Origin: a virus
Taxonomy: Duplodnaviria > Caudoviricetes
Length of the DNA stretch: 61,042 bases
Direction: 5' to 3' (one strand)
IMG/VR virus record: IMGVR_UViG_3300042377_000298
Location: 1-61,042 of that record
Shown here: positions 2,212-56,443 of the stretch, in pieces
Layout of the letters: each line of letters opens with the position of its first letter
How positions within the stretch are numbered: the stretch's first letter is position 1
Position numbers and translations under genes: made by a program
The notes under the pieces: model-generated
What the model saw: the letters and a program-made list of their open reading frames with translations, nothing else
What the model was told of the DNA's origin: nothing
The model's database searches: none

Positions 2212-2216
2212 ATATC

Positions 2217-3063: not shown

Positions 3064-3138
3064 GATATGTTAACGAAATCTGTTTCGGGAACATAAGCAA
3101 AAACATTGGATACCAATGAACTCACATAACAATAAATT

Positions 3139-3270
3139 ATGAAAAAATTAATTACAATTATTCTAACAATTATGCTTGCGTCGTGCGTAGAAAAAATTAC
3201 AGTGCAGGGGCAATACGGGGAATATTCCTTCAAACCCCGCAAAGTAATCGTCATCGAGGAGGCTAAATGA
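3139..3270 (+). CDS. Small lipoprotein (spanin-like), not in ORF track
   Basis: MKKLITIILTIMLASC has a signal peptide and LASC lipobox. 43 aa, ATGA overlap with the endolysin. Confidence 0.65.
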   Translation: MKKLITIILTIMLASCVEKITVQGQYGEYSFKPRKVIVIEEAK

Positions 3271-22200: not shown

Positions 22201-25200
22201 CAAGCACTTAGATCAAAGTTGTATGCGGCGCAGCAAAAAGCAACTACTGATGATCTTGGAAATGCAGTTTCTGAAACAACCAAAAGAGACATTGGTAATG
22301 AAGGTCAATTTTTGCGTAGGCCTCGAGTTGGAGAAACAGAAAATATTGCAGTTAACGAACTTGCTGCTGATGCGCAAATTGAAAGCATAATGAATCGAGT
22401 TGGCTTGATGATTTCAAAACTACAGAATTTACAAGAAAAACCAAAGTCAATGCTTAGCTATAACCAAGAGCAAGCACAGTTGGTATTGGACTCCATGCAG
22501 GAAGATTCAGACAAGAATAAATTAAGTGCAGGAACTATTTTTTACGCTAGAACATTTAAATTCAAATCTAATGAATCATTAATTAATGATAGCTTGTTCA
22601 TGAAGTTTCCTTTATTTAGCGCATTAATTCAATCAATGCCTAACCTGATTGTGTATCAACCAGATACAAACTATAATGGGAAAACAAATAATCTTCCTGA
22701 TGGTGCTGGCCTTGTGCAATTGTCAAATGGAGACAATATATTGTATATCACAAATCCTGATCAATTAAATAATAGCAAACAAGCTCAGATTCTAGAGTCT
22801 TTAATTGTCGCACAAATTAAATCAGAATCGGACAATGGCGCTCGCCCTTCTGTTTTACAGCAGACAATTGATCAAATGGCTGAAGTAGTGCAAACTCAAG
22901 CTAAGCACGCAATCAACATGACCCCAGACAGGATTAATGTAATGATGGCAAGAGCTGAACTTGCGATTAACAAACTTACAACAATTGATAATAAAGTTAA
23001 AAAAGCGATAATTAGTCGTTACAAAAAGTCACTAGAGGCAAATGCTTACGACTCAATCAAGTTGCTAACTAATCGGACAGCTAGGCGTTCATACATTGAG
23101 GATCGCGTATCTAATCGCACGGAAAACGTAAGTCGTTTCTTTGACCAATTAGTAACTGCTGATCGTGCAAATGGGAAGACATCAACAATTGACAATATTC
23201 AAATGATTGTTGATATGTTTACTAATCCAGATTCATATAGGTTATTAAGCACATTCAAATCTCCTGATTTAGATTTTAATGCATATTCACCATTGCCTCA
23301 ATTTGATGCTTTGCTTAATAAGGCTTTGTCAATTTTTGCAATTCCCGAAGTTCGAAGTAGTGCAATTCATGAAATTCAAATACAAAAAAGACTTCAGTTA
23401 ATAGATGAAGCAAACGAAGGAATTGAAGAAGACAATGTTGAGACTGATCCAAATTTAATTTACGAAGCTATTGCTGAAAATTACAACGAAGAAAATCGCA
23501 CTCGAAAAAAACTAAGCAAACCTGAGATTTTAAATATCATCAAGCAAATGTCGGATAGTCAAATTAAGGGCATTATTGACCCTCTCATCATGGAGAGGTA
23601 TTTCTTGACCAATCGCTCACCTGAAGCTGCAAAAGACCTTGTTGAGGCATTTAAGCAGAACACTGCGCAACCTGACTTCCTATACAGATATGTTGGATCA
23701 CAATTAATGAAAGCAATGGAGCCTACATTAATTAACGCAGATCCTTCAATTAAGGAAACATCTATTTTTGATAATGAGTTTCCAACTAAATCACTTAGTC
23801 GTGAAGCAAGAGCATATGACGTTTTGTTTGCAACCAATAAGCCAATCTTACTTAGCACTATGATGGACCCAGCCATTGGAACTAATAATACTTTTTCCAA
23901 TGTTGAGGCGAGAACGCCAACTGGAGATATTACTAATTTCTATTATGGCCACAGCCCAATGACTGAAACTTATAGGGTCAATCGCAAAAAAGTTCTTCTT
24001 GGGATGTTACTTGGCAAAACTGAAACTGGCAAAAGTTTAGTTGATAAGCTATTTGATGATCAAGAAGAATTAGCTATGGAAGTTTTTTCCGTCACTTCCT
24101 CTGTAAGCCTTGATAAGTTTTCTGGCATTTTAGGATTAATGATTAAGGAACTACCCGCATTAATAGGCGATGATGTAGTAGCTAGGGCAGAGCAAATCGT
24201 TGATAGAATTGCTGTCTTAGCGCGCAACAACAAAGAAGAAACCAAGAAACGTATTGCTGAATTAAGCAATCAATTAGAGGTGATTAAACAACAAGGACGA
24301 GAATTCTTATTAGAGAAACTTATTGAGCGAAATAAAGAAGCTGCTAAAGTCGCAACTTCACAACTTCTTTTTACTCCTGATGAAAACGAAGAAAACATTG
24401 GTATTTATGACTCTCGATCCACACTGGAATCTATTGCAAATCGTATTTCTAATTATCTCATTTCTGAAAAACTTGGTTTGAATCGCAACAGTTATAACTT
24501 AGCTAAAAAACTAGAAACAAATGCAAATAGCTATTTGTTAAAATATAAAAATGCTATTTCAAGAATATCTAATTATGATCAACAAATTGCAACTTTATTT
24601 GATGGAGACTTTTCTTCCGACTATACTAGAAATAACACCAAGTATCGTTTTCTTGTTGATGGACGCAATAATTTAATTGATAAGGCTGAAATCTATAAAT
24701 CTGAGTATGTAAAGCTTGCGGCAATGGATTTAATGGGAGAGTTAATTAATCCGTCTCATTTCTTTGCAAGTCCCAATTCAGATGTGCAAGGTTATATCCG
24801 TAGTCGCCTGAATGAAATAGGCAATTATGGTAAGATTAAATACAGAAGTGTTTCACCATTTGATGAAGATGCTACCTCATCTGCTGTTTTCAGGGGAATT
24901 TCTGGTAGTCTTGTTACTAGAGGACGCAAAACAAATTTAATGCTTGGCATTAATAAAGCTACAAGGCCTGAATTTGCATCTGAATTGCTTGATGGAATTA
25001 CCAAGAACGAAGCAAAAGAAATGTTTGCTTCACTAGGTCCAGATTTGCTGAAAAATTTTGCAAACAATAAAGGATACCTACAAGACAACTTCAAGTCTGA
25101 AATGGTGCGCGAATTCTTTAGCCGACTAAAACAAGAAGGAACAATATCCAAGTTTGCTAAGGAGATGTCGCAAAAAATAGACGTTCTCAAATACAATGAG

Positions 25201-28200
25201 AGCCAAATCAAGGAAATGGTTATCAAGTCTCTTTCTGAAAACAAATCATTATTAAAACTTATTAATGATGAGTTCATTGTTACTGATTTAGAATTAGCTG
25301 AATCTGATGTTGAGACTGGAAAGAAAATTCTTGATGGAAACATTGAAGGAAAAATTGAAGAAATCACATCTGAAATTGAAAGATTAACAAAAATTAGAAA
25401 TACAACTCAAGGTCACTCTACGCAATTATCCAAAACAGGATCTCCAAAAATTGGTAACGTGACGCTATTTGAAATACCAGCTTACAAATATCCAGATGAA
25501 AATGATGCAAGAAAGCGCATGAACATGGGCATGCCAGCAAGCAGAAAAGTCAATCTCAGATTGACAAGAAGCCTTAACGAGTCTGACTTAAGCACTGATC
25601 AAATAGCGCGCTTTGATGCTACGACTAGGGATGCTCGTATTATTAACGAAGCTATGAACATCTTTCTTGAAGAAGAGGGCGAGGTTGCTTACAAGGCGCT
25701 ATCCGAAGAAGTTGATTTGTATGGCGAAGGTTTCGACGTTAAGCAAAACATTCAAAACGTAATTGAATTAATACAACTCAAAAACAATCTTTCTGAAAAA
25801 ACAAATACTAAATTTGAATTAATGATTCAGGAAATGTCAAAGATTGACACAATTCTCAATGAAGCAGATCAGCCAGCAATTGAGCTATATGGTATGACGT
25901 TGCGTGACATGATCAAGTTGGGCTTGTCTCCAGCAACTTTAATTAATGAGAAGGGCAAAAAAGAAGTTATTAATATTGCAGACAAGTCTTCCACTCAGTC
26001 TGAAATCAATAGAATTAAACAAACTGCGTTATTTATTAAAAATGAAGCTGGGTTAGCGGTATTTATGCCGACAGATGGAAAACTTGTCGACCAGCCGGGA
26101 AGAAGTCATTTTCTTTATAGTCGATCAGCGCTGAATCATTTGCAAAGTTTCAAGAAAATCACTAAACAAAAAGGAAAAGCAGAGAGTTTGTTGAAAGACG
26201 CTATCTTTAGAGCCTCACGTGGCGCTACTGGATTTGACACATTCCTTAGAACACAAAGCCATGAAAATGTAGACTTTGATGCAAGCAAGCCAGTCAGTTC
26301 AGAACTTGCTGTTGCTACTGGTGTAAATCCAGCAATGACAAAAGGAGAGTTTGTTAAGACTGCTAAAAGACTCTTTAATGAATACTTCTTAAAAGAAATA
26401 GGCAACTACGTGTTTTCTTCATTTGCTAAAGGTATTGGGATTTATAGCACGATCAAAAAAACTGATCGCATGAATGATCAAGAAATTCAAGAAGCATTTG
26501 ATTCTGTTTACAGCTTTGCATCTGATGTAGCAAATGATGCTATATTGAAATCTTCTGGTTTTTCTGTTTTAACAAAAGCAAAACAGGACTACACAAATAA
26601 TGAAAAAGCGAAAATTGTTAAATCTGCTTACGATATTGCAATTAATGAGAACAAATTTTTAGCTCCAAATTCACATGCATCAAACAATATTTTGCTTAAT
26701 GAATCTATGTTTGAAGACATTATTACAATGTTGGAAAGTGATAAGTTCGCCTTGCTTAATAAAAACAAATCAGTAAGCGCATATGAAGTTGCTGCAATTA
26801 ATGCAATAGCAAGTGTATTTAGTAACGAAATTAATACGGCAAATAGCACTTCTGGCAAATTCTTTAGCTTTGATACAGCTATTACGCGTCTTGATTTACG
26901 TCAAAACTATTCAAGACTTTATTCGTTGCTTTACTCACAAGATATTTTCACTGATCTTCTTAGTGGTGTTGTTGATTCAGAGAAAAGAGACAGCAATGAT
27001 TTATTTACTCATTCAAATGCTTTAGTGAAACAAAAGTTCGCAAGAAGCTTTGGTTCTTATCAAAGGGCATTAAGTTTGCAAGGATTGATTGAGCAAGGTA
27101 TTAATGGAAATTCTGGAAGAAATAAATACTCAGCAAAATATGAGGAGTATCAAGACAGGATTGGAAAAGCAGCAAGTCAAATTGGAAATGATTTTGACCT
27201 AGGCTCACGTGCTTATATGGTGGCTGTGACAAAAGGAATTGTTGAAGCCAATAATAGAGATGGGGGAACTGATTTGGACTTGGCTTTGAAATTGCATTAT
27301 TTTGCTTCTGCTTACAACAATGGGATAAGAGATCATCGCCAATTGCTTAGAGACATTAAGGATTTCAAGAAAAATGGCAACATGTTTTCTCGCGCAGTTA
27401 AACTCTTTGATACTATTGGAAGAAAGCAATCAAGAGAAGACATGAACGTCAGCCTTATTAATAATTTAATTGGGGCGGAAATTGAATTAATTGCGCGAAG
27501 AGATCCAAAATCATTAACAAGACAAGAAGTTCAGTCCTATATCAATCAAATTGAAAATATTCTTTATGATGGATTTGACTCCAAAACAATTAGTGGAATG
27601 AACAATTATGCGAATGCATTATTGGAAGAATTTACTGGGATTTACGAAGGCCATAGAATTGCAAATGCTTTTGCTTCTGAAGAAACATTGCGTGGAATTG
27701 AAGAGGTTGTTGATCCTAAAATAAGCAAAACTGCAAAAACATTAAAAAATCCATATAGCGTTATTCCATTGCGTTTTGGGCATGTGAAAAATCCATTAAG
27801 TAAAAAAGATCCAAGTATTGGCAATGGATCTCCAACTATTGATAGCTTTGTGAACTTTGAGCAAAGTTTAATGAACTATAAGGGACGAACAATCTATGAC
27901 TTGCAAAAAGAAAGCTTTGTTCGCGTTTTACGTCCTTTAGACATGAACCCATTTACTGCTCCAGATCAAATTGCCAATGATGCAATTTATAGAATGTATT
28001 TGAATCCATCATATACTGTTATTCGCAAAATGCTTGGAGAGTATGGAGTTGATGTCAATGGAATTCCAAAAACAGAAAATGGACATTTGGTTGGAGCTAT
28101 AAAAGCACTTTACAATATAAGCAATGATCAAAGAATTGAAAAAATTGGTCAATATAATCAAATATCTGCTTACATTATAGATAAAATTAACACTGAAATT

Positions 28201-29766
28201 AAAAACGATATGCCAATGGATTTGGCTGATAGTTTGCTTGCTGATGCACTTCGCATTTCTAATGTTCATTTAATGGTGAAAACCTTGGCGAGTGTAACGC
28301 AAATCTTGACACAAGGAATTTTACCAGCATTAGCCAAATACCTTAATGTTAAAATTGGTAATTTTGCAGGACTGCATCAAAAAGATTCTGCAAGATTAAC
28401 AGAGGCTTACGCTTTGGCATTAAAAGATTATTTTAAGTCTAGCAGCGAGGGAGATGGCCGAAACTTTGTTAAAGAGAATAGCACTAATAGTTACAAGTGG
28501 AGAGCTGAAGGGGCTAATAAAAGAGATTCGCAAGTCAGCATGACCAAGTATGCAAGCCAAAATCATCTCACTTATTTAACAAGAGTTTTTGGAGCTTCAT
28601 TCAATAAACTTGGAGAAGGATTGCTGGATGCTACAATTGGAAAACCAGAAAGAGCACTGGTGCAAGCTATTTACATGTTTGAATTATTTAATGAACTGCA
28701 AAAAGACATGGGGCAAAACGCGCCAAAAACAATTGCAGAAATGATCAAAATGAATCCAGATCAATTTAGCACCTATGCTAAAACAAAAGCTGATACAATG
28801 GTCACTGACTTTATGGGCATTGGTGATAGAGCTAAAAAAGCTAGAATTTACAACCTACCTAGAAATAGGGCGGTAGAGACATTGTTATTGAACTATGTGA
28901 CTAGATATGGGAATCACGCGCTTACTGTTGGCCCGAATTTAATGGTCAACATGGATCAATTGTATAAGCAATTAAGCGGAACATACAGCGACAAGCAAAT
29001 GCGCAATGATGCACTTGAAAACGTTATTGGAACTGTTTTGCAAACATTGTTATTTAGGTTTGGTCAGGTCCAAGTGATGTTGCCAAACTTGATTTATTTG
29101 TTTTACGGCATTACTGGATTGCTTGGTGGTGATAAAGACGAGGATGAGGAAGATGCTACGCAAAAAACGCTGGATTTATTGCGTAGATTGGATGTTTATG
29201 GAGAGCCTGAACTTGAAGAGGATACATTTATGACAATACTTAGCAGAAGATTGAGAACTTATTTGCTACCGCAGCAATTTGCTGCTACTAAAAAAGAAAA
29301 TAGAACTGCTAAATTATTTGGATGGCAATTCAAACATAGTCCAATTCTTGAATCTAATTTAGGAGCGCTTAGAAAATCTGCATTAGATACACTTCCTGTT
29401 ATTTCTTATCTAAAGGCTGGGTCTGCTTTAAGCGTCCCACTGGGCAACAATTTTATTGATCTTACTTCTGAAATTTCAATGATGGGATTAAGAGGCGATA
29501 ATGTTGATTTCTCTGATATTGGTCGCATTGCATTTAAAACGGAAAATATAGCATCTGCTCCAGTTTTGTCTTTGCTTGAAAGCTATAAAGGAGTAATGAA
29601 CACTGCTTCTGTTCCGTTAAATTACTTTTTACCAAAAGAAGGAATGGAAGGTATTTCTGCTACAGAAATGCTTGAAGGAATGTTAGTATCACCTCTTGGT
29701 ACAAGAGAATATCGCCCAACATATTATGAGCGAATTAAAAATAAAGGTGGATGGGGGGACTATTAA
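13261..29766 (+). CDS. Giant (5501 aa) internal virion / polyvalent-type protein
   Basis: Uninterrupted 16.5-kb ORF. Gly/Ala-rich hydrophobic region around aa 470-850, HExxH (HENAH) near aa 1256 and EExxH (EELLH) near aa 1790, coiled coils. Confidence 0.75.
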   Translation: MSEISPINTENDKLPIDDQPNNATNITPVIAPLDQSIKQEASTAKAPKVPDVEKTNARRKTYEFLDIDPIDSLNVFNKVNKNEWSSADPSRRDEIASERLNELNQNLIAADPSTPSGRVEIPSLRKIIVDGKETEELVNVPASDSSGRLSKAGQDYYNQSSSLLSSAAKDEKGGLRINPLTGKTVSKIGSRLLTPYAKDEIDPERFSVNEEGIKYEKLNPEDVVDYAHVRRIYQARAKQAGISYKKLITELISPGESLDQLDVNRRIVSDIGYNAGTYEDGSSGEFVNDLELLAQIKNSKIGSENKEENEKLQAILTKSIARLKAEEGMGSKLVDLHDGQPIFNMEKIKNINDIEQALEQLPISKTEKQSLKLNFKTNFESQAVELIRKLDVGDQMTDLFRNNDGLEKLADYIDPETRKKLDIPDFRDFSSFESFTNSGLSAYDWLKQNSDLYDTNIISSSIEKILLGTLDSFDSTRVAVLSLGAGIAQAGMSVLPNTISEGLKGRELLEDARLGLAEGKAFFSEMKKGRAAQLGKWDLIGNEDSYINITSDDIFDAAGNIIEMYLTLGTSSAVKGLGLIGSRTLTVAASKELGKKAAVESTKMAAKLQGADSLLLRNIGKISKSGIEFKEGAKALWQNAEALNTAANVLKTSLYGSFTSAGGGIGEGYSRAIQAGKSEDEALIEATSTGLSNGLATFVAMTVMNGLFPSLGVEKGLIKASEGVGLRTSIRNTIARNKSSDSISKGLRELVKDKATLKGVPKGVADAMRGISKSQGIVGFGKSVTFGSIAEGIEEWGDEMLAPVINAYLLKNESARKQLETDGYWLGALKAGVIGMLMGGATSLGTKTSEGKAKAFELANQRMDSYIERVLPAYKGMQDELVSVKSTTAEGAEAIGTLRNILETGTTDQKVQALTELGKQKIQQLSFDANTKQEGVLKTPSTPQDSDTSKNPDAKGDPITPKEKTTTVIEKKKFDIPSKITNKQNNVNVPVQEESNLASFAYNQAHGLEIKDTNMPSPKLEVSGSSVFQKVGGNITVTSYNINGNEADLHSFEDTNGDTIFTNKTNLGKLLLKSHGQGVVLKNLSKVSNTDNVASLIKSSESNVDKNQTPEKDKASDPEVTEKDDSNKSTSEQDPLSTDTAPIEAEEKTEDIYDENKQVVGENKLKPALKKVYDKYRNYFNRKKIGIIIVTNASELENIPEFKNFKKTSMGFAGTINIGKSNQRDVIVIITDNIESQKASTPEASIETIFEDILEHENAHVITKRFNRTKKGNKLRKDFEEDLFNNQKLNEAMDEDYPSFSKQSNDTKFFEFVRTFVSGKLTNRTLSAMMSISPSMKKWIAGFIKFAKKELKNYRGAKTYLSAFEKFYIQEIKDDAALFKYSPSSTEAFKNFITNLISKVSPTKARKQGKLLTTKEIDFSNVDRYADAFTDFLRTGITDLTSPNDLVSKLVDILNGFSEESIGLGPESKKEIFNKVIEDWRNNETNTDILNALLDASNKIGSVDNAPHISDESTPASEMVLKATEERLAYNQYTRIRKTVADTLVVLVKNDTTATQKAVTEIDKPSDTQGNSASNAYILGRIDQATGEIIDLGFEVGDVVSVVNSSGDVIQHLVYVKSEIFIAPNGQKEARHEFLSGVVSENGKLSSFGIGLQTMFSDKFRKDFEESGLVDDMFAVESGNLKLDNVDKLLQFVFESLTNKAINSEGKNINSIEIAGKSYTFNDLFLFDITGKTSDANASPFYYKDGKIVVNIDALRTEFSFINDSLLKDSDNKKTIGLLIAQAVRTAIDEELLHHITTLTFGEDELVSLYNDLAENDRFSGLLNQIANAQGIYVSSEQFTDQQRYVIATEFLAFINQKSFDGATYADQYNQLLKSYASAKPDGKALATASLYGKRFKDILIARSATSLMAPRLIDMVNKLSVLKSEVMPKQSSSNMANVYANFNADAYTKSRGRMQQSIDNAFLKQYSAVNDLRTYLAESRLMANQILDFDFNNNTVSLSPEFRAVYQNKITAEELAELDDYFSRLNNDSVVREFLVTLSAARASLDAITEQVDVNNNDPDLGNRFQQATKNYNNLVLDYADIFLNKNLTKVDEFGRSFAVIGSELGGESFPVYSETSDNSVTVKFNADTSNVTIFTYDVNLFGYENQNPSNAINDRYEQRKKFADVNNDLEKAKTETLWFYGYRGRYTSSDRQNFPNKVSTIEGNAAFLGEEEFNFFYISRINGESFRLNNNPYSYTDFRKMMGFNPIDFKINSDGEKVFLNFNEVINKFIISDEELETGVSNTSTGESYTVTIRRMSESKLLKDSEPERQRIVLGSALQRFFGDTKNILTWFNKLEEIIGYERSSGDINVINEISGRETFASKFAKQLKYRMFNNRLIHGNGIHEKIDGETESDQSLYGMIKELQSAYYALFASITPPSDVKLFKSVGKNELSNAEVSNLLAKLPVFLEAIDSLNQDIGLARKAYTRFTSSYLLNTIKGDIRLIQEQNTEGLRANEELLRAIQYSFYDIQAMEDVEFLMDYRNNGGRNGINGIIALNLLDQLANIPSSAQNEYYVSNTPSKNVAYLLQTYAMYLENGVNPRTKDADGKSTYPTDNLVFNVIQKYGDKANENEDDFNADIDTKPSDTAETIGMSGVSPVTGRDEASQEAIDSARRESMHEEVKRMKSWTFHAAISIFQRIVGNDNDITIDGIDTSKTKLFFYLFAKIQNRPSMENDFNEEDFSQLKKDHQDLSNLMLDQLKALSNHYNMTNSPNTGFEQIANKVRKSSYTHPMEFLADVVEVIGAMERDYLDEVTDAGKTLAEYSQRELKKEIAKSESAVSVDKGATSFADTSKLQEKLESLIEGLNLELDSPSVSPSIIALYKTKISEIESEIESATQGAAQQVQGQSAVKRYIKKDTTELRQKLDFLNSQLDAFKTSLLEIRADNPKNPSIPGVMKEISNKQAEVKRATYELKNLTSENEKADAQIKTPIEKLENYYQALRSKLYAAQQKATTDDLGNAVSETTKRDIGNEGQFLRRPRVGETENIAVNELAADAQIESIMNRVGLMISKLQNLQEKPKSMLSYNQEQAQLVLDSMQEDSDKNKLSAGTIFYARTFKFKSNESLINDSLFMKFPLFSALIQSMPNLIVYQPDTNYNGKTNNLPDGAGLVQLSNGDNILYITNPDQLNNSKQAQILESLIVAQIKSESDNGARPSVLQQTIDQMAEVVQTQAKHAINMTPDRINVMMARAELAINKLTTIDNKVKKAIISRYKKSLEANAYDSIKLLTNRTARRSYIEDRVSNRTENVSRFFDQLVTADRANGKTSTIDNIQMIVDMFTNPDSYRLLSTFKSPDLDFNAYSPLPQFDALLNKALSIFAIPEVRSSAIHEIQIQKRLQLIDEANEGIEEDNVETDPNLIYEAIAENYNEENRTRKKLSKPEILNIIKQMSDSQIKGIIDPLIMERYFLTNRSPEAAKDLVEAFKQNTAQPDFLYRYVGSQLMKAMEPTLINADPSIKETSIFDNEFPTKSLSREARAYDVLFATNKPILLSTMMDPAIGTNNTFSNVEARTPTGDITNFYYGHSPMTETYRVNRKKVLLGMLLGKTETGKSLVDKLFDDQEELAMEVFSVTSSVSLDKFSGILGLMIKELPALIGDDVVARAEQIVDRIAVLARNNKEETKKRIAELSNQLEVIKQQGREFLLEKLIERNKEAAKVATSQLLFTPDENEENIGIYDSRSTLESIANRISNYLISEKLGLNRNSYNLAKKLETNANSYLLKYKNAISRISNYDQQIATLFDGDFSSDYTRNNTKYRFLVDGRNNLIDKAEIYKSEYVKLAAMDLMGELINPSHFFASPNSDVQGYIRSRLNEIGNYGKIKYRSVSPFDEDATSSAVFRGISGSLVTRGRKTNLMLGINKATRPEFASELLDGITKNEAKEMFASLGPDLLKNFANNKGYLQDNFKSEMVREFFSRLKQEGTISKFAKEMSQKIDVLKYNESQIKEMVIKSLSENKSLLKLINDEFIVTDLELAESDVETGKKILDGNIEGKIEEITSEIERLTKIRNTTQGHSTQLSKTGSPKIGNVTLFEIPAYKYPDENDARKRMNMGMPASRKVNLRLTRSLNESDLSTDQIARFDATTRDARIINEAMNIFLEEEGEVAYKALSEEVDLYGEGFDVKQNIQNVIELIQLKNNLSEKTNTKFELMIQEMSKIDTILNEADQPAIELYGMTLRDMIKLGLSPATLINEKGKKEVINIADKSSTQSEINRIKQTALFIKNEAGLAVFMPTDGKLVDQPGRSHFLYSRSALNHLQSFKKITKQKGKAESLLKDAIFRASRGATGFDTFLRTQSHENVDFDASKPVSSELAVATGVNPAMTKGEFVKTAKRLFNEYFLKEIGNYVFSSFAKGIGIYSTIKKTDRMNDQEIQEAFDSVYSFASDVANDAILKSSGFSVLTKAKQDYTNNEKAKIVKSAYDIAINENKFLAPNSHASNNILLNESMFEDIITMLESDKFALLNKNKSVSAYEVAAINAIASVFSNEINTANSTSGKFFSFDTAITRLDLRQNYSRLYSLLYSQDIFTDLLSGVVDSEKRDSNDLFTHSNALVKQKFARSFGSYQRALSLQGLIEQGINGNSGRNKYSAKYEEYQDRIGKAASQIGNDFDLGSRAYMVAVTKGIVEANNRDGGTDLDLALKLHYFASAYNNGIRDHRQLLRDIKDFKKNGNMFSRAVKLFDTIGRKQSREDMNVSLINNLIGAEIELIARRDPKSLTRQEVQSYINQIENILYDGFDSKTISGMNNYANALLEEFTGIYEGHRIANAFASEETLRGIEEVVDPKISKTAKTLKNPYSVIPLRFGHVKNPLSKKDPSIGNGSPTIDSFVNFEQSLMNYKGRTIYDLQKESFVRVLRPLDMNPFTAPDQIANDAIYRMYLNPSYTVIRKMLGEYGVDVNGIPKTENGHLVGAIKALYNISNDQRIEKIGQYNQISAYIIDKINTEIKNDMPMDLADSLLADALRISNVHLMVKTLASVTQILTQGILPALAKYLNVKIGNFAGLHQKDSARLTEAYALALKDYFKSSSEGDGRNFVKENSTNSYKWRAEGANKRDSQVSMTKYASQNHLTYLTRVFGASFNKLGEGLLDATIGKPERALVQAIYMFELFNELQKDMGQNAPKTIAEMIKMNPDQFSTYAKTKADTMVTDFMGIGDRAKKARIYNLPRNRAVETLLLNYVTRYGNHALTVGPNLMVNMDQLYKQLSGTYSDKQMRNDALENVIGTVLQTLLFRFGQVQVMLPNLIYLFYGITGLLGGDKDEDEEDATQKTLDLLRRLDVYGEPELEEDTFMTILSRRLRTYLLPQQFAATKKENRTAKLFGWQFKHSPILESNLGALRKSALDTLPVISYLKAGSALSVPLGNNFIDLTSEISMMGLRGDNVDFSDIGRIAFKTENIASAPVLSLLESYKGVMNTASVPLNYFLPKEGMEGISATEMLEGMLVSPLGTREYRPTYYERIKNKGGWGDY

Positions 29767-32104: not shown

Positions 32105-33937
32105 TTAAGTCCAAGGCTTTTCACTTTGGGAATACATTGGACGAACAGGGCCTGGACTTGAAAGAAAACGCTTTGTAGCTTTATCAAACCAAGTGTTTGT
32201 CATTGGAATCTCACCAGTGGCACGTTGCTTGCGACAGATTAGTTTACCGCAAGGAGTAGACTCCCAGAACTCTTGCATTGCATCGTCTGGATAATCATTG
32301 GCTTTCATCTCTGCAAGGCGCTCATGCTTTGAAACATCGCGCCATACCGTAATAATGTTGTCTGGCATATTGCCCCATTCACTAGCACCTTGAATTTCTG
32401 CAATAGCTGGTGGGCTACTGACCCCTTCTCCACTCTTACGTGGATGAGCAACAACGTGGACATGCACAGGATAATTAGATGCAAAGACGCGAATATTATC
32501 AATGGCTTGTGCTTGTGCTGTATTGTCACCACGATCGACATCCATCGTCATGACGTTATCAATAACAAAATTAGTTACCCCATACCGTTTGTGTGCATGA
32601 ATAAACATGTTGATGAGTTTTAGAGGGTTTGCTTTTTCTCTGCTTTTGTAAATAAAGCAATGCTCGCTAAGGTATTTGAATGCTTTATCAAAATCATCAT
32701 TAGCAACAATCTCTGAACTACCAGTCATATTCATCAATATGGAACCAAACGTTCGCTCTGGAGGCTGTTCAAAAGAAGCAACAACACTCATCACCCCACG
32801 CGCAGCTAAGTTAGCAACTTGATTTTGCACGGCTTGAGACTTGCCTTGCGAAGTGTATCCAAACCATAAAGTAATCTCATGCTTACGGAATGTAAGGTCA
32901 AAGCCCGGCAGGAAGAATGGATCGCCATCAAAAAGATAGTCGCCACGAATGAAGTCAATAACTCCACTCTTCATCTCCTTGGCATCTACAATCTCGTCAA
33001 GCTGACCTTTGGCAGTAGAGTCAATAAGATTTATAATCTCCCCGCCACGACCAGCTTTGAGCATGTCATTAGCGTCCTTGAGTGGGAGGTTTACAATGAT
33101 GCATTTGTCAATGCCAAGCCTTGCTGCAACATCTGCCGAGCATTTCTTGCCAGCAGCATCACTGTCCATAATAAGAACAATGGTATCAAAGTAAGAAAGA
33201 TATTCATAATCCTCCTTAATCCAGTTCATGTTTGACACGCCAGAAGGAATTGAAACAGCAGGAAGTCCAAGTTCATATAGAGCCAAAGCGTCCCATTGAC
33301 CTTCTACAATAATCAACCGATCACTATTAGAAGAAGGATCACAAACATCTTTACCAAACAAATTGTGAACAGGGTTTGCACTGCTCCACATTGTTTTGTC
33401 ATTATTGGGCATCCAGTGTTTAGTCAGGCTAAGCCGTGATTCGCAGTCATAGTGGGGGAAAATAAACTCTCCACGACTTCCTGATCCCACACTGTAAGTC
33501 TCTAATGTCTTTTTATTAATCTTACGAGTAGCAGCATACTTAATGCAATCTTCATTGAGGGGTTGGATTAACTCTGCTAGCTCTTTGTAATTTGATGACT
33601 TGTTTGCCCCTGAAAAGTTTTGAATAGGAGCTACATTGAGAAAATTACCAAGCCATGCAATACTAGCGGGGATAGAAATCCCTTTAACTAGATGCACAAG
33701 CTTCCATGCGCTGCCCTTAATTGAGGGATTTGCATGGTCATAGAATTGCCCAATGTTATACGTCTTAGTTGAAATGCTAAGGCTGTCGCCGGGATTGCCA
33801 TCAATGTTGCCAATGCGGTAACACCCAGTTTGTTTCTTAGCTGCGGGAAACAAGGTTAGAACGAACTCGTCAATGCGATATTCTAGCTTTGTTTTAATTT
33901 CTTGTAAGTCGTATATTGTCTTTGTTTCAGTCATCAT
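32105..33937 (-). CDS. Primase-helicase (T7 gp4 / Twinkle-like)
   Basis: TOPRIM (VEGQWDA, MDSDAAG, KDAND) fused to an SF4 helicase (GYTSQGKS, FEQ, VIDN, VAHPRK, KQR). Confidence 0.9.
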   Translation of the reverse strand: MMTETKTIYDLQEIKTKLEYRIDEFVLTLFPAAKKQTGCYRIGNIDGNPGDSLSISTKTYNIGQFYDHANPSIKGSAWKLVHLVKGISIPASIAWLGNFLNVAPIQNFSGANKSSNYKELAELIQPLNEDCIKYAATRKINKKTLETYSVGSGSRGEFIFPHYDCESRLSLTKHWMPNNDKTMWSSANPVHNLFGKDVCDPSSNSDRLIIVEGQWDALALYELGLPAVSIPSGVSNMNWIKEDYEYLSYFDTIVLIMDSDAAGKKCSADVAARLGIDKCIIVNLPLKDANDMLKAGRGGEIINLIDSTAKGQLDEIVDAKEMKSGVIDFIRGDYLFDGDPFFLPGFDLTFRKHEITLWFGYTSQGKSQAVQNQVANLAARGVMSVVASFEQPPERTFGSILMNMTGSSEIVANDDFDKAFKYLSEHCFIYKSREKANPLKLINMFIHAHKRYGVTNFVIDNVMTMDVDRGDNTAQAQAIDNIRVFASNYPVHVHVVAHPRKSGEGVSSPPAIAEIQGASEWGNMPDNIITVWRDVSKHERLAEMKANDYPDDAMQEFWESTPCGKLICRKQRATGEIPMTNTWFDKATKRFLSSPGPVRPMYSQSEKPWT

Positions 33938-36028: not shown

Positions 36029-37033
36029 TTAGTTGGCTAAAGATACTGCTGACTCAAGGAGTTTTGTTCCGCGTTTTACATTGTTTTCCCAATCTTGCTC
36101 AAAGCGTTGAGCAGCAATGGTTTTTGTCAATGCAGATGCGCCCCAGTTACTAGTGTAGTTCTGTGACCCAGCTTCTTTACGATTTGATGACTCGTGCGTC
36201 TCAAACTCTGTAAGTGCTTGGAAGGCATCAAGGCGTGTGCGACCTTCATTGCCGCGACCAGAATCAAACAACTCACCAATGCGAGCAGCTTTTTGAACAA
36301 GGGCATTTGTTCCTTTGTCCATGTTGCGACCATGAATACCAGCAGCCCAAGCTTTTGCTTCATCTCGTGAGCATTGCACATCATGTGCGCGCTGCAACAT
36401 AGACTTGAACATATTTGAAGTGCCAGCAAAGCCATCAATTGCATCAATAAGGCGAGAAACATTTACCTCAAGCATTTGGGTGTGCTTAGCTTTGCCAAGT
36501 TCTACACCAGAAGCCATGGATGCCATGAATGTATTATTGCAAACTGTGCAGAAATTAAGGTATTTAGCCGTAAGTGCTGTAGTTTTGTCAAAAGAATCCA
36601 ATACTGTAATGAAATCATCAAATTGGCGACCAGCAACTTCAAAACCTTCAGTAACCTTAAGCGAAGCAAATATCTTGCGACGATTATCAACTGTGCCAGC
36701 AGATACAATTTGATAAGGAGTTTGTCCCATTCCCTTCTTGATCACATCCCAAAACATATTGATTGATGATGGTTGATAGCTTGTGCCGTATGGATCACCA
36801 ATTGGGAGCCAATCGTCATTAGCCAATAGAATCTTGAATTCTGGATCTTCGATATAAATATCTTTGGTAACGCCGAAGTAATCTTGTTCCTGTCTTTTGT
36901 AGTAGATAGGGGACTCAACAACCTCAAAGGGCATAGAGTTCTCTTGGTTAACTTCGGAGACAATAGTTGTCAGATTGTGCCATGCTTGCTCTAGCCCTGC
37001 TTGGATGTCGCGTTCTTGAATTAGGTGTGCCAT
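36029..37033 (-). CDS. DUF932 / DUF945-family protein
   Basis: AWHNL, YQP, SAGTVDNRRKIF, SFD, VCNNT, KHT, AFQALTEFETH. Confidence 0.8.
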   Translation of the reverse strand: MAHLIQERDIQAGLEQAWHNLTTIVSEVNQENSMPFEVVESPIYYKRQEQDYFGVTKDIYIEDPEFKILLANDDWLPIGDPYGTSYQPSSINMFWDVIKKGMGQTPYQIVSAGTVDNRRKIFASLKVTEGFEVAGRQFDDFITVLDSFDKTTALTAKYLNFCTVCNNTFMASMASGVELGKAKHTQMLEVNVSRLIDAIDGFAGTSNMFKSMLQRAHDVQCSRDEAKAWAAGIHGRNMDKGTNALVQKAARIGELFDSGRGNEGRTRLDAFQALTEFETHESSNRKEAGSQNYTSNWGASALTKTIAAQRFEQDWENNVKRGTKLLESAVSLAN

Positions 37034-38309: not shown

Positions 38310-38867
38310 TCAATCGTTCACGTCTACAACTTCTTCAGGAACTGCTTCCTTGAGTTGTTGCTCACCGAAACCCCACATTGCTGCGTATTCAGGCGCACGA
38401 GACACGATTTTCTCTATTGTTACTTTGTCGATCTCCATAACTCGGAGAGCTTCTTGCAATTCAAATGTGAATAGCGCCATCTGTTTAGCAAGCTCGTGTA
38501 AGGGTAGCTTGTTGGCTGACGGAGCATGTGTTGGTTTGCTGGTAGAAGTAGTTACAGTCGGGACAGTAACGCTTGCACCAGAGATTGTGCATGATTCACT
38601 AGAAATGCTTACAGCGCCATTGTATTCATTCTTTTTGAGAGTTCCTACAAATGTAACTGTATCACCTTGGTTCAGATTGCATTCACATGCAGCACCCCAT
38701 AATGACATTTTGGATTTACCAGAATTATCTGAGATGCTGATGTTGCGATAGTTTTTCCCATTGGAGCTTTGCTTTGTCTCATAAACTGCATCGATCTTGA
38801 CAGGACCAAGTGACATTGCTGTTCCTCTTTGAGGTAAATTTAATACTTGATGAATTGTGCTTGCCAT
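38310..38867 (-). CDS. OB-fold ssDNA-binding protein (RPA-like)
   Basis: 'NISISDNSGKSKMSLWG...GDTV...KNEYNG' OB-fold pattern, acidic C-terminus. Confidence 0.65.
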   Translation of the reverse strand: MASTIHQVLNLPQRGTAMSLGPVKIDAVYETKQSSNGKNYRNISISDNSGKSKMSLWGAACECNLNQGDTVTFVGTLKKNEYNGAVSISSESCTISGASVTVPTVTTSTSKPTHAPSANKLPLHELAKQMALFTFELQEALRVMEIDKVTIEKIVSRAPEYAAMWGFGEQQLKEAVPEEVVDVND

Positions 38868-39194: not shown

Positions 39195-39776
39195 TTATTT
39201 AATTAATCTAGTTTTGTTGTTTTGGTATGCGGCTTGAACTACTGGGTTCGCGCCGTGAATTGTTGTGTTTGCTTTGGCAAGTTTTGCGTCAAGCTCGGCA
39301 AGTGTAGTTTGTGCATTGAAAGATGCAATAATTTTATTGACCAATTCTGAATTTATTTCTGAAGCATTATCTCTTTTTCCGTGGTCATTGGTAGCGTCAG
39401 CATCTTTTGTGTCGTCAATGCAGAACAAGCCATTAAGGGCATACTTGCGTGAGTAAGATGAACAAGCTCCTGTAACTTGGGCCGAGTCTTGCCCTTTCTT
39501 TTCGTCAGCTTCACGTGCAAAAGCACTTACTTCTAGCCACTCTCCTGTCTCAACACTAATTAAGCGAGCAGTAGATCGAACGTAAATTCTATCCCCGATC
39601 ATTGAGATGTCGTCACTTATAGTTAACGCAAGACTGTTTTGAGCAAGAAGAGGTTTAACTGCTTCTAAAATGCCTTCCGCATTGCGATAATTGTATTTAG
39701 CAAAAGCGTTAAATTGATCTTTGGGGCATTTCAAGTCACGTTGGACTTTACATAGTTTATGAGCAATGTCTTTCAT
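39195..39776 (-). CDS. erf: ERF-family ssDNA annealing protein
   Basis: PK.QFN.F.KYNYR, ILEAVKP, AQVTGACSSYSRKYALNGLF.IDD.KDAD. Confidence 0.9.
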   Translation of the reverse strand: MKDIAHKLCKVQRDLKCPKDQFNAFAKYNYRNAEGILEAVKPLLAQNSLALTISDDISMIGDRIYVRSTARLISVETGEWLEVSAFAREADEKKGQDSAQVTGACSSYSRKYALNGLFCIDDTKDADATNDHGKRDNASEINSELVNKIIASFNAQTTLAELDAKLAKANTTIHGANPVVQAAYQNNKTRLIK

Positions 39777-51906: not shown

Positions 51907-52841
51907 CCAAGTTTAGCGTAGCATTGATTATGGCTATTAAGCTGATATGCTCAATAAAGGCAAAGAAACAGCTAAAATACGCCTAAACAGAGCACACAAT
52001 GGCACTTTCTAGCCCACTTTGACCACTGACTAGGGTGGAGACAGCGGAAACGTGTTACCCCCTGCTTAAATCGGCTTGTAGGAGCACTGTGGGCATGGAT
52101 GTTTAGATGGGATTGCCCTAGGTATTTGCCTGAATGTGGTGATGATGTGTGGTTTATTGGGGGAATAGCAGTACAGATCAACCAAACACTGGTTTATTGC
52201 AGTAGCAAGGGATTTTGTGTTTACGCCCCGTGTGGAGACAAGTCTTGCTGTACTGTTGCCTTAGATTATTGTTGTTACATTGTATTCTTATTAATGAAGA
52301 CAAGTATCCTTACAACCTCCCTAGTGCGTTCCGAATGAAAAGCATTATCTACTCGGAACTTTCTACGTCCATTAAAGAACGACACCTTAGGAGTCAACCT
52401 CCTGCCAGCTTGTTTAGTCTCCCGCTGACACCCGTTAGCCGCTTTCCAGCTGTTCAGGTCTAGTTGAGAGTGTGGAAGATTCACGTCTTCTCGCGTAGCC
52501 CTCTCTTTTATACTGTGATCGGGGAGCGAACAGTGGGCAATGAAAAACCCGTCCGAGATACTACCTTCGAACGGGCTTTCCAACCATGAAACACAAGCAC
52601 GGAAATCTTTGTTATACGGTAGTATCGCAAGAACGAGCAACGATTAATGCATTAATAGTAACTTGTCAACATTTATTTTCTTTGCCTGTTGCATTACCAC
52701 CAAGGGCACTATTAGTGACCTGTCTTTGCCTGCTGATCCTGTGCTGTTAGAGAATTGGATAAGTTAAGTTGTTCTCTGTAATGCGCTTTGCACCCAGACC
52801 TAAGCCCACAAGGTTGTTACGCCCTGTGAGCTACGGTCTGA

Positions 52842-53036
52842 TTACAACTCTACATTACGGAGAGGAACAGTCATGTCACCCCAGCGACTGAAGAGCCTGA
52901 AGAGTGTAGACTTCCTGTGTTGCGATGGAACTTTGAGCAATGTGATAGGCTCAGACTTAGGCTTACGCCCTTGTAGGTATTCCATTGCCGCCAACTGACC
53001 CACTGCACGCAGGTTTCTTTCTTGTTTATTATTCAT
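52842..53036 (-). CDS. Early hypothetical protein
   Basis: ATG after GAAT, stop followed by a CAGAC hairpin. Confidence 0.5.
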   Translation of the reverse strand: MNNKQERNLRAVGQLAAMEYLQGRKPKSEPITLLKVPSQHRKSTLFRLFSRWGDMTVPLRNVEL

Positions 53037-53147
53037 ATTCTTTATTCCTTAACCTCCTTGAACGGAAGGAGTAACCGAGTGTTGCCGTGTTGACACCACC
53101 ATTGCTGTCCACTTTAGTCTGGCTAAAATGAACAGTGTATGGAAGCA

Positions 53148-53387
53148 TTAAACCTCTTGATACAGCTCAAGGAACTTATCAAGAGAGTGCGTCACAGTCG
53201 CCCCAGTGCTCTCGTTAAAGCACAGGACAACCCAATGTAGGGTGGCATTCACAATCCTCCCTCGTCTCGCCGTCAGCTTAGATACCCATAAGGAACCAAT
53301 GCTTGGCGTATCAATTAATGGTTGATCAACCTGCTTGTTTATAATCTCAAGCATTCTCTCAACCCAGTCATCATCAGTGTAATCCAT
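53148..53387 (-). CDS. Early hypothetical protein
   Basis: 'IGSLWVSK...SLDKFLELY' SH3-like pattern. Confidence 0.55.
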   Translation of the reverse strand: MDYTDDDWVERMLEIINKQVDQPLIDTPSIGSLWVSKLTARRGRIVNATLHWVVLCFNESTGATVTHSLDKFLELYQEV

Positions 53388-53502
53388 AGTTAAATACTCT
53401 GTTTTAGCCAACTAAAGTGCGCGAGCAAACACCTTAGCTTCTACTTAACCTTAAGCAGACTACAACCCACCACCATTGGCTGATGATGGGCTGTGTGTCT
53501 GA

Positions 53503-53757
53503 TTATATTCTCACTCTGAAAGTTGCCAATTTTTCTGAGTGAACTACCCTTACTTCATTAGCTTTCGTATGTGGGAGCGCTTTGGAGCTAGTTGATATTT
53601 CGACCCCCCATGGAGTATTCTCCTGAACCTGCCACCTATACCCAAGGTGATCGATCCAGAATGCCCACTCTTCTACACTTAAGTGTTCAAGTGGCAGTGT
53701 TTGAGCATTAACAGAGTAGTCAAATCCAAGCAACTCCTTGATGTTTTCCGTAGTCAT
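53503..53757 (-). CDS. Early hypothetical protein
   Basis: ACACATATG start context, stop followed by a CAGAC hairpin. Confidence 0.55.
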   Translation of the reverse strand: MTTENIKELLGFDYSVNAQTLPLEHLSVEEWAFWIDHLGYRWQVQENTPWGVEISTSSKALPHTKANEVRVVHSEKLATFRVRI

Positions 53758-53908
53758 ATGTGTATATGCAACTGCATGTGCGCGGTGCAGAATCCAATCA
53801 CTGCACAGATAACCAACATCGCTGGTCAGGCGTTGCTCTCCCCATTAGAACTGAATAAGGGGCAGGAAATTCGTGCCAGTTTAGAGACATGGCTGGTCTC
53901 GATGGAGG

Positions 53909-54103
53909 CTACTCCCACATCTCTTTAGATGTGTAGTCCTCGCTTGCCCAATCAGGCACTGGCTCAAACTCGACTGCCTTAGCAGCCTCATAGCTACCAA
54001 GTTTGCCCAGTTCGGTTGCCGCCACTGAAGCAATCCGAAGATCGCCAATGGCAATTGCGTGTGCTTGGATGCAATGCCCAAGCTTTTGTAGTTCACTAGT
54101 CAT
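53909..54103 (-). CDS. Early hypothetical protein
   Basis: ACACGAATATG start context. Confidence 0.5.
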   Translation of the reverse strand: MTSELQKLGHCIQAHAIAIGDLRIASVAATELGKLGSYEAAKAVEFEPVPDWASEDYTSKEMWE

Positions 54104-54165
54104 ATTCGTGTATGGTTTGGTTCAAGCTGGCCTACCAACGTGGTAGGTTGCAGCGAGAGGAATAT

Positions 54166-54238
54166 GACGCAACCCCCATCACCTTTCGGTGACAGGACGC
54201 TTTGGGCTTAATGTCTGTTTAACGTCGCCCAAACGACG
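54166..54238 (-). ncRNA. Pistol self-cleaving ribozyme
   Basis: CGUCG UUUGGG CGACG UUAAACAG ACA UUAAG CCCAAA GCG [10-bp P3, GAAA loop] GU UG matches pistol architecture. P2 is imperfect. Confidence 0.8.
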
Positions 54239-54271
54239 GAGTAGTTTTAACGCCTTGCTCAGGGCGAAGTC

Positions 54272-54520
54272 TTACCAATTACGATCTATCAAGCAACGCT
54301 TAATGATCTCTGATATTGTCTCATCAATCTCATTGATTGCGTGATTGATGAAGCCTGAGCCTGAACCCATTCCTGCTCTCACGCTTCGGCAGTCAGCCTC
54401 GTGTCTTTCTTCAAACGGGAACGATCCTTTAGGTAGTAACGCTCTCAAGCCTTCCTTCCTTGCTTGTAGTTGATTGATCGCTAACGCGGCTGTCTCTGGT
54501 AGTTGTAGTGTAGTATTCAT
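54272..54520 (-). CDS. Early hypothetical protein
   Basis: ACACACACATATG start context. First gene of the - strand block. Confidence 0.55.
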   Translation of the reverse strand: MNTTLQLPETAALAINQLQARKEGLRALLPKGSFPFEERHEADCRSVRAGMGSGSGFINHAINEIDETISEIIKRCLIDRNW

Positions 54521-54715
54521 ATGTGTGTGTGTTGTGTGTGTAGTCTGAGGGGCGGCGGGTGTCACCTGACTCCCCTACTCCGCTGCATCGACTACACAGA
54601 TGGAACAGAAGGTTTATGAGAAAATTTGTGAAAAAATTCATGAAAAAATTCTAATAAAAAAATCCAACTAAAAAAATCCCTTGAGTGTGTAGGGGGTATG
54701 GGGTAATAAGGGTGC

Positions 54716-56443
54716 ATGGATAAGTATGGGTATAGCTGGCCGATGGGGGTGAACCAGTTAACGATTGAGTTGTGGTGCTATGCGCACAGGAGTTGTGGTG
54801 TTGATGAGAAGTGGGGGCATTTTAAGAACATAGTTGATTTGGCATTTAATGGTGAGGGGAGTATTCGGAGGGTTGTTTGGAACAAGTGGACAGACAAGAT
54901 GATTCGGAGTGCGATTGGTGATGGTGGGAAGAAGAGGTTTTTGGGAATTGCTGGTTGTTCGTCTAGTGGTAAGAGTGATGGATTTGCGTTGTATGCTTTG
55001 GTGGAGTTTTGGAGTAGGCCAGCAGACACGTATGTGTTTGTGATGAGCACGACAAAGGCAGATGCTAGGAAAAGGATTTGGAGAAGTATTACGCAATTGT
55101 TTACGCAAGCGCAGAGGATGGGATGTCCGGGCAAGTTGGTTGATAGCCTTGGGGTGATTCAGGGGGTTAACAAGATGGGCAAGCTGACAAGGAACAGTGG
55201 GATTGAGTTGGTGGCTGCAGGGAAAGCGGAGGCTGGAGAGGCAAGCAGTGGATTGATTGGTATTAAGAGTCCTAATGTTGTAGTGATTGCAGACGAGATG
55301 CCAAACCTTGGAGATGGTATTTTGGAAGCTGCTTGGGATAACCTTACGTCAAACGATCGGGTGTTCTTTGGTGGGTTGGGGAATCCGAATTTGTTTAGTG
55401 ATCCATTTGCTGATTTGTGTGAGCCTATTGGTGGCTGGGCTACGATAACAGAAGATGATGAGGATTGGAAAACAAAGTATGGAACATGTATTCGATTTAA
55501 TGCTGAGAAGAGTCCTAGGATTTTAGAACCTGATGGAGAGAAGTATTTCTGGCAACCAGACCAACAGTATTGCGATAGGATTTCTGAAGCTAGGGGTGGG
55601 AAGAAGAGCCGAGGGTATTACAGGTTTGTTAAAGCATTTTGGTGTCCTGAAGGTGCTGGCAATACAATTTACCAAGAGAGTGAGTTTCTTATTAACAAGG
55701 CAACAGAGAATCAAGAACCTGAATGGGATGGGACACCAATTGTAATTACTTCGCTAGACCCTGCATTTACTCGTGGAGGTGACAGGGCATACACAGGCAT
55801 TGCTAAGATTGGCAAGGTTGCAGGACGTGACCACATGCACGTCTGTCAATACAGGGGGCTAGAAGAGGACACTTCTGATAAAAAAAATCCTTTGTCCCAT
55901 CAATTAGTAATTCAATGGAAAGAGTTGGCTACAGATTGGGGAGTAACGCCATACAGGGCGACGCTAGACGGCACAGGAAGCGGGATTAGTTTTGGACACA
56001 TAGTTGACGCGCTTTGGAGTCCTGCTGTCTCTAAGGTCAATTTTAGCTCAAAGGCTTCAGGAAGAAAAGCGTTCTTCCGTGGGAAGGAGGTTGAGTATTA
56101 CAACAAGAACAGCGAGTTGTGGATTCAGCCAAAAGAGTTTATTCGTGGTGGGCAGATAACGGGAGTCAGCAAAGAGTTAATGAAGGAGCTTTGCACACGG
56201 CAGTATTACTCAAAAGAAACTGAAAAGCTGCGCGTAGAAAGCAAGGACGAGCACAAGAAGAACAATAATGGAGAGTCATGCGACATTGCTGATATGTTCC
56301 TTATGTTAGTGGATAAATCTATTGCTTTGGGAATGTTTCATTCCGAGGAAGTTAAGAACGTAACTAAGGTGACAGGAAAGAACTGGAGAAAATTAGTTAA
56401 GAAAAAACAAATAAATGCTTGCTGTGGTAGAAAATTAAGGTAA
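54716..56443 (+). CDS. terL: Terminase large subunit
   Basis: Walker A GCSSSGKS, Walker B VIADE, LGNP motif; nuclease LDPA...GD, LDGTG, DIAD. Confidence 0.92.
   Translation: MDKYGYSWPMGVNQLTIELWCYAHRSCGVDEKWGHFKNIVDLAFNGEGSIRRVVWNKWTDKMIRSAIGDGGKKRFLGIAGCSSSGKSDGFALYALVEFWSRPADTYVFVMSTTKADARKRIWRSITQLFTQAQRMGCPGKLVDSLGVIQGVNKMGKLTRNSGIELVAAGKAEAGEASSGLIGIKSPNVVVIADEMPNLGDGILEAAWDNLTSNDRVFFGGLGNPNLFSDPFADLCEPIGGWATITEDDEDWKTKYGTCIRFNAEKSPRILEPDGEKYFWQPDQQYCDRISEARGGKKSRGYYRFVKAFWCPEGAGNTIYQESEFLINKATENQEPEWDGTPIVITSLDPAFTRGGDRAYTGIAKIGKVAGRDHMHVCQYRGLEEDTSDKKNPLSHQLVIQWKELATDWGVTPYRATLDGTGSGISFGHIVDALWSPAVSKVNFSSKASGRKAFFRGKEVEYYNKNSELWIQPKEFIRGGQITGVSKELMKELCTRQYYSKETEKLRVESKDEHKKNNNGESCDIADMFLMLVDKSIALGMFHSEEVKNVTKVTGKNWRKLVKKKQINACCGRKLR

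Follow-up and report, generated by a model that had tools for sequence, protein, structure and literature searches.

The pistol ribozyme family reportedly goes back to Weinberg in 2015, and more than 500 pistol ribozymes are known in bacteria and phages, as are many twisters and hammerheads. Pistols cleave by internal phosphoester transfer at a GU junction, the known cleavage position of the family, which yields a 2',3'-cyclic phosphate and a 5'-OH; the one tested member for which a rate is given reaches about 10 per minute at physiological Mg2+ (PMC4604425). The roles of general acid, general base and supporting scaffold are assigned to five core nucleotides, purine-32, G33, G40, C41 and G42 (PMC6154101). 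Twister, hammerhead, pistol and hatchet ribozymes cluster in bacteria and phages, and the processing of polycistronic mRNAs has been suggested as their function, in a 2019 review that still calls the roles of bacterial ribozymes "largely elusive" (PMC6765202).

The DNA analyzed here, referred to as the window, spans an entire IMG/VR virus record of 61,042 nt, which is linear, has an estimated completeness of 92% and belongs to an uncultivated freshwater (lake) phage. A reading of this DNA from its letters alone had placed a pistol ribozyme at 54166-54238, between the first two putative early genes. It does lie between the first two genes of a leftward operon, and the Rfam pistol model (RF02679) matches 54168-54238 on the minus strand, 71 nt that cover model positions 1-68 of 68; 54166 lies 2 nt past the end of the model match. 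With 61.6 bits, the match exceeds the gathering score of 34.5 by 27 bits (E 8.2e-9, for 4227 families searched over both strands of the entire window); the proposed identity passes its cmsearch check. It is the sole Rfam match at gathering score in the 61-kb window. In 29000-61042 it is also the sole match at E<=1, with no further ribozymes, and in 52600-54720 at E<=10 the other Rfam matches were five noise matches to snoRNA and lncRNA models. The pistol model matched none of 14 control genomes, and the 41-nt 5' half of the element occurs once in the window and not at all in 100 shuffles. A promoter and terminator scan of the window gave no enrichment over shuffles, and its single 'terminator' is the complement of P1. 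The pistol copy is identical in four DNA runs (X9, X14, X17 and X19), where it occurs on short contigs with no alternative joints; the same arrangement is present, without differences, in four lake samples. These are DNA runs and are silent on expression, and a search for RNA runs over window positions 53300-54720 found none listed as carrying the sequence.

The elements that the sequence-only reading had listed on the minus strand are all present (Table 1). P3 is followed by exactly two junction nucleotides, G54173 and U54172, and these by UGCG, which is the pistol layout. The pseudoknot helix also forms in nested folding. In the nested minimum-free-energy fold with flanks, sequence upstream of the element competes with P1.

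Table 1. Features of the window: pistol ribozyme, neighboring genes and intergenic elements, other genes and palindromic sites.
Feature	Position	Strand	Basis or remark
P1 hairpin	54238-54234 with 54227-54223	-	CGUCG/CGACG, 5 bp, in sequence
P1 loop UUUGGG (pseudoknot 5' strand)	54233-54228	-	complementary to CCCAAA
Pseudoknot 3' strand CCCAAA	54206-54201	-	6 bp with P1 loop
Linker UUAAACAG, A-rich, then UUAAG	between P1 and pseudoknot 3' strand	-	sequence
Catalytic-core segment: UUAAG, pseudoknot strand, GCG (54200-54198)	54198-54211	-	model alignment
P3, 10 bp (three G.U), GAAA tetraloop	54197-54188 with 54183-54174	-	model match, sequence
Predicted cleavage junction G54173/U54172	54172-54173	-	the model's two unpaired junction positions
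P2 3' strand UGCG, against GACA (54215-54212)	54168-54171	-	model register
Gene 1, 82 aa, ATG 54520	54272-54520	-	start context family D4
Small hairpin CGCC, 8-nt loop, GGCG	54251-54266	-	between gene 1 and ribozyme
Gene 2 leader	54099-54168	-	fold with flanks
Gene 2, 64 aa	53909-54103	-	
Island A, intergenic	53758-53908	-	95-97% nt identity in L005, L006, L010, L012, L033, L039
Gene 3, 84 aa	53503-53757	-	
Long hairpin, ~22 bp, from gene 3 stop codon	53452-53505	-	fold z -5.2
Gene 4, 79 aa	53148-53387	-	twister directly upstream of L034 homologue
ERF recombinase	39195-39776	-	E 3.9e-40
OB-fold protein	38310-38867	-	weak matches below cut-off
DUF932 protein	36029-37033	-	
Toprim/AAA_25 primase-helicase	32105-33937	-	
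Peptidase_M15_4 endolysin	3267-3860	+	
TTTAG-N4-5-CTAAA sites	9667, 19327, 21427, 25117, 30265, 36028, 43810, 44635, 50076, 53113, 53403, 58929		

For comparison, 19 pistols were aligned, namely that of the window, four from close relatives and 14 from other phage contigs; because they were collected with a pattern derived from the window pistol, they represent a subtype and not the whole family. In P1 and the pseudoknot together, pairing is seen in 95.2% of the cells of this alignment and drops to 27-48% if the 3' partners are shifted, and 7 of the 11 pairs have changed on both sides. Such two-sided changes affect 4 of the 5 pairs of P1, and 3 of the 6 pseudoknot pairs are compensatory, with 95.6% of the pseudoknot cells paired. 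The covariation score of the two helices was reached by none of 500 shuffles. U29, A30, G32, G39, C40 and G41 (window ribozyme numbering) and the linker AAA are invariant in all 19. The core aligns with the published purine-32, G33, G40, C41 and G42, a correspondence assigned in the present analysis; all of these positions agree with the model consensus, and the equivalent of purine-32 is A or G across the alignment.

The one element that appears weak is P2. In the model register, the window has two of four canonical pairs (the U-A and the G-C beside the junction), and an alternative register with a 2-nt bulge gives four pairs by eye. From this the sequence-only reading had suggested attenuated activity. 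Its description is accurate, in that two of the four pairs are non-canonical, but other pistols lend the attenuation no support. P2 was parsed in 16 pistols of other phage contigs, with L002, the second copy of L015 and the second copy of L024 dropped as ambiguous. Among the 13 other phage pistols with a GU junction, of which L017 and L022 are near-identical, the number of canonical P2 pairs is two in 4, three in 7 and four in 2. Two pairs in P2 are therefore nothing unusual among natural phage pistols. In the pistol of L010, UGUU replaces UGCG and all 4 of 4 pairs are formed. A weak P2, taken alone, could also hint that the sequence resembles the pistol model by chance. The probability of this is negligible in view of the E-value, the 14 control genomes without a match, the covariation, the retention of the element in four related contigs and its unchanged sequence in the four DNA runs. 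Over 74-100 nt, the pistols of L007, L008, L010 and L033 are 96-99% identical to that of the window, against 74-83% for the neighboring plus-strand genes. The minus strand at 54168-54238 almost certainly encodes a real pistol ribozyme.

The same subtype accounts for 21 pistol matches in 16 viral contigs, and it is also found in contigs labelled Maribacter, Prochlorococcus and Aliivibrio and in Gordonia phage GMA7. By mechanical ORF calls, 12 of the 18 phage-locus pistols have a same-strand ORF that ends within 60 nt upstream, and 12 of 18 have one that starts within 65 nt downstream. Three pistols (L016 8428-8500, L019 7285-7357 and L023 2857-2929) each precede a long tRNA array by ~550 nt, on the strand of the array. 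No tRNA genes were found in the 61,042-nt window. In the phage database, the sole match is to 42 nt of the pistol, in its 5' half, at 90.5% identity in Gordonia phage GMA7 (NC_028673), a cultured actinobacteriophage. The GMA7 pistol (L002 2502-2570, 44.1 bits) is located 6 nt after Orf82, between two hypothetical genes, and there is no annotation at its position.

In the window, the pistol follows the stop codon of gene 1 by 33 nt and precedes the start of gene 2 by 64 nt, on the same strand. These genes open a leftward operon (minus strand, ~54.5 kb to 30 kb) that continues into the replication genes and that, from its layout, is presumably early. Gene 1 has no Pfam or PHROG match and Atlas scores below 0.8; by tblastn it is found at 100, 90, 89 and 89% amino acid identity in L034, L004, L009 and L031, respectively. 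No homologue of gene 2 was found in the related loci, and the ten proteins neighboring the pistol gave no PHROG match. Island A, which is ~110-150 nt long and nearly invariant between unrelated ORFs, is abutted on its 5' side by a twister-P5 in L012. As a candidate structured RNA it was ruled out as an obvious fold (z 0.08; no Rfam match at E<=10).

Elsewhere in the window, no spanin-like feature was seen by eye beside the endolysin gene. A single ORF of 5501 aa occupies 13261-29766 on the plus strand, and none of the three pieces into which it was divided has a Pfam or PHROG match. The palindrome TTTAG-N4-5-CTAAA occurs 12 times in the window, against 0.35 expected; three of these sites are within the 5501-aa ORF and several are just upstream of early genes, and similar motifs are present in spacers of L004 and L005. 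These sites could be operators, hairpin promoters or terminators.

The window gives indirect indications of the host. A Shine-Dalgarno-like 4-mer precedes 4 of its 43 gene starts, against a background of 12% at random positions; gene starts are preceded by A/T-rich sequence, and a CA-rich start context (family D4) is common to genes 1-3. A scarcity of Shine-Dalgarno-like starts is typical of Bacteroidota-type translation initiation, and may give indirect support for the diderm host that had been suggested for this phage. A search for relatives of the primase-helicase in bacterial genomes found none. In any case, a diderm host for a pistol would not be new, since the pistol of a member of the Bacteroidota, Alistipes putredinis, was already assayed by Harris in 2015 (PMC4604425).

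Relatives of the locus were anchored on the adjacent 575-aa protein, which gave 11 viral-contig loci and 6 metagenome-contig loci, two of them duplicates; L039 was added by the island-A pattern, for a total of 16 distinct related contigs and the window. A search by the 3' end of gene 1 recovered only L004 and L009. The position of interest, or slot, is immediately 3' of the first early gene. Four contigs (L003, L011, L013 and L032) stop short of it, and 13, the window included, cover it. The slot is occupied by a pistol in four of these contigs, by a twister in six, by a hammerhead (by our own descriptor) in two and by a 22-bp hairpin in one, and the number of independent lineages is lower than 13 because L005, L006 and L039 are near-identical regionally, as are L004 and L031. 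Besides that of the window, the slot pistols are those of L007, L008 and L033; with the window at 61.6 bits, these three score 55.5-63.4 bits. Matches to twister-P5 occupy the slot in L005, L006, L012 and L039 (55.2-56.5 bits, gathering score 37.6). The remaining two twisters were assigned with the twister-P1 model at scores below its cut-off of 67.2, that of L034 with 54.3 bits (E 1e-9) and that in the first slot of L010 with 43.6 bits (E 1.7e-6). L010 contains four ribozymes within 1.2 kb (2185-3400, minus strand), one per intergenic spacer between small ORFs: one of the twister-P1 type, one pistol and two twister-P5.

The slot element of L004 and L031 has the features of a type II hammerhead according to a descriptor that combines the CUGAUGA and GAAA core, A15.1-U16.1, G10.1-C11.1, H17 and three stems with stem II open, which we take to be the defining core of the class. 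In 634,778 nt, both strands included, this descriptor finds only the L004 and L031 sites, and 50 shuffles of the window contain no such site. The two copies differ by 3 substitutions, all of them pair-preserving. Because a search of the L004 record with the Rfam model Hammerhead_II (RF02276) found nothing at E<=10, these elements are called hammerhead-like by core and topology and are not Rfam-confirmed; the match to Hammerhead_3 is weak (25.7 bits, E 0.25). In both copies, the CUGAUGA core (L004 ~1514-1530 and L031 ~3532-3548, minus strand) can pair with a UCAUCAG just downstream, a competing hairpin that both have kept.

The slot element of L009 is a 22-bp imperfect hairpin located directly after the stop codon, with no Rfam match at E<=1. 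It was considered as a recurrent module and set aside, as its pattern recovered only L009 itself in the viral contigs. Hairpins of ~20-22 bp that start from a stop codon nonetheless form a family, which comprises the long hairpin after gene 3 of the window and those at L009 2908-2958, L012 2424-2474 and L010 ~620-680. The base AGAC/GUCUG is shared (it was found in the window, L009 and L012), and the upper stems differ yet are paired.

Exchange at the slot is most easily seen where the flanks are the same. The last 19 codons of gene 1 are common to five contigs, and they are followed by a pistol in the window, by a twister in L034, by the hammerhead in L004 and L031, and by the hairpin in L009. 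On either side of the slot, L034 and the window are 97.7% identical, but where L034 has 75 nt with a twister, the window has 850 nt that begin with the pistol and go on through gene 2, island A and gene 3 to the hairpin spacer. The two sequences part within a few nucleotides of the 5' end of the pistol and come together again at the ATG of gene 4. In the window, L010 and L033, a pistol is preceded by the small CGCC/GGCG hairpin, which also precedes a twister in L034 and L010. The leader of gene 2 is shared as well, after the pistol in the window and after a twister-P5 in L005, L006 and L039. L010 has one leader that is present both after its first twister and after its pistol, and one 30-residue ORF N-terminus is found 3' of the pistol of L033 as well as 3' of a twister-P5 of L010.

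It may be that the pistol is a decayed or weak copy that is kept as a conserved patch of DNA, at which cassettes of early genes recombine, much as with the promoter/stem-loop cassettes of T4-type phages, and for which cleavage is irrelevant. The early region is a mosaic, in which conserved intergenic islands (93-99% identity) alternate with unrelated small ORFs, and homology with the relatives begins and ends within a few nucleotides of the pistol ends. P3, for which the family tolerates any sequence, is the same in 4 of the 5 close copies, as would fit recent exchange, and the weakness of P2 points in the same direction. However, the different ribozyme classes that fill the slot share no sequence, and therefore cannot act as homology patches for each other. 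All core positions are intact, a P2 of two pairs is also present in 4 of the 13 other pistols, and substitutions among copies preserve pairs: in L008, a G.U pair of P3 has become A-U, and the GAAA loop has become GCAA. We consider a DNA patch with no need for cleavage unlikely.

A second alternative concerns the leader of gene 2, in which 54168-54160 can pair over 9 bp with 54107-54099, across the AUG (54103-54101) and with an inner 7-bp hairpin between the two strands. If the pistol were a regulator specific to gene 2, the cut would free the 5' end of this leader, and the pairing would set the translation of gene 2. The pairing is kept in the leader of L005, where a C-to-U change turns a C-G pair into U.G. 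Furthermore, the last nucleotide of P2, G54168, is common to both structures and in the fold with flanks is able to pair in the leader stem instead. The distribution of the leader nevertheless argues for a stem that is independent of the pistol, because the same leader (54094-54168) recurs 3' of twister-P5 in L005, L006 and L039 with 93-95% nucleotide identity; there it lies 42 nt downstream of the twister, and the cleavage site is elsewhere. Conversely, the pistols of L007, L008, L010 and L033 precede leaders other than that of the window. A role confined to gene 2 therefore seems rather unlikely.

It is also conceivable that the ribozymes serve the cassettes and not the phage, with the flanked ORFs freed as unit-length RNAs, bearing 5'-OH and 2',3'-cyclic phosphate ends, that could be ligated or circularized and spread as selfish modules. 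The dense series of ribozymes in L010, each between small ORFs, would suit such a life cycle, as would the fact that cassettes differ between near-identical phages. The window, by contrast, has a single ribozyme, and therefore no ORF in it has a ribozyme at either end; the ribozymes are combined freely with upstream genes and with downstream leaders, and there is no reverse transcriptase or ligase among the proteins scanned. Such modules are very unlikely to explain the locus.

The reading that we favor, and regard as likely, is that the pistol is an interchangeable intercistronic cleavage module in an early region with shuffled cassettes. P1, the P1-loop pseudoknot and P3 would fold as the RNA is made, and the 2'-OH of G54173 would attack its own 3' phosphate, with a co-transcriptional cut between G54173 and U54172. 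The upstream product would be the gene 1 mRNA, with the folded ribozyme and its 2',3'-cyclic phosphate at the 3' end. The downstream product would start with the 5'-OH of U54172 and continue through the structured 69-nt leader of gene 2 into the later genes. The early transcript would in this manner process itself, as the sequence-only reading had proposed; we take it as quite likely that the pistol cleaves in vivo. For the phage, the benefit may be that neighboring cistrons are separated, or insulated, in a region where genes are shuffled as cassettes, such that the stability and translation of each become independent of its neighbor; a role in intercistronic processing or insulation appears moderately probable.

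The three interchangeable classes cut at different places in their folds and leave different structures on the two products, which argues that the cut itself would be the selected property. As a guess, the long hairpins (slot 1 of L009 and 53452-53505 of the window) may be cut by a host double-strand RNase. A broader proposal, made here tentatively and somewhat more likely to be wrong than right, is that in this lineage of lake phages the spacers among the small early genes are obligatory RNA-cutting sites that are filled by a pistol, a twister, a hammerhead or possibly a nuclease-cut hairpin, each exchanged independently of the flanking genes. If this is true, these loci are a natural demonstration that the job of a phage ribozyme can be the context-free separation of cistrons in a cassette-shuffled operon. 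Near-identical phages that differ in ribozyme class, or in having a hairpin, at one slot amount to a natural swap experiment, and confirmation would argue for selection on the cut and not on a class-specific structure or a response to a ligand. They also supply matched natural constructs for a reporter test, with the same gene 1, the same leader and four different modules.

Compared with the pistol family as described (RF02679; Harris 2015, PMC4604425), the window copy has the same P1, P1-loop pseudoknot, P3, 2-nt GU junction and core, with P2 in its usual place, and it shares the family's habit of adjoining phage genes. Its fold does not differ; its particulars are the two canonical pairs of P2 and neighbors without Pfam or PHROG matches. 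The ribozyme clusters of bacteria and phages, as far as the review portrays them, likewise have several classes per neighborhood on the coding strand, but here the classes replace each other at one orthologous position, in phages up to 97.7% identical (PMC6765202). The window pistol is thus a further member of a known family, and the new point is the comparative exchange at the slot, which is not claimed to be unreported: the literature searched, supplementary locus lists excepted, contained no account of one class taking the place of another at an orthologous slot.

Phages of the T7 type have RNase III processing hairpins between their early genes. The intercistronic cleavage of early mRNA proposed here is similar, and the 22-bp hairpins of L009 and the window follow stop codons; it may be guessed that these are RNase III sites. 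The predicted self-cleavage differs in needing no host enzyme, and in producing cyclic phosphate and 5'-OH ends, not 3'-OH and 5'-phosphate ends. In the engineered RiboJ, a ribozyme upstream of a gene strips off variable upstream RNA and expression becomes independent of context (PMC6206723); natural insulation at the phage slot would be the parallel of this design. Finally, the PeSLs of T4-type phages are mobile regulatory cassettes, conserved intergenic elements that flank shuffled early genes in hyperplastic regions, as in the lake phages (PMC2839356, PMC4122927). As those sources describe it, a PeSL consists of a promoter and a stem-loop, whereas the intergenic modules of the present loci include three classes of ribozyme.
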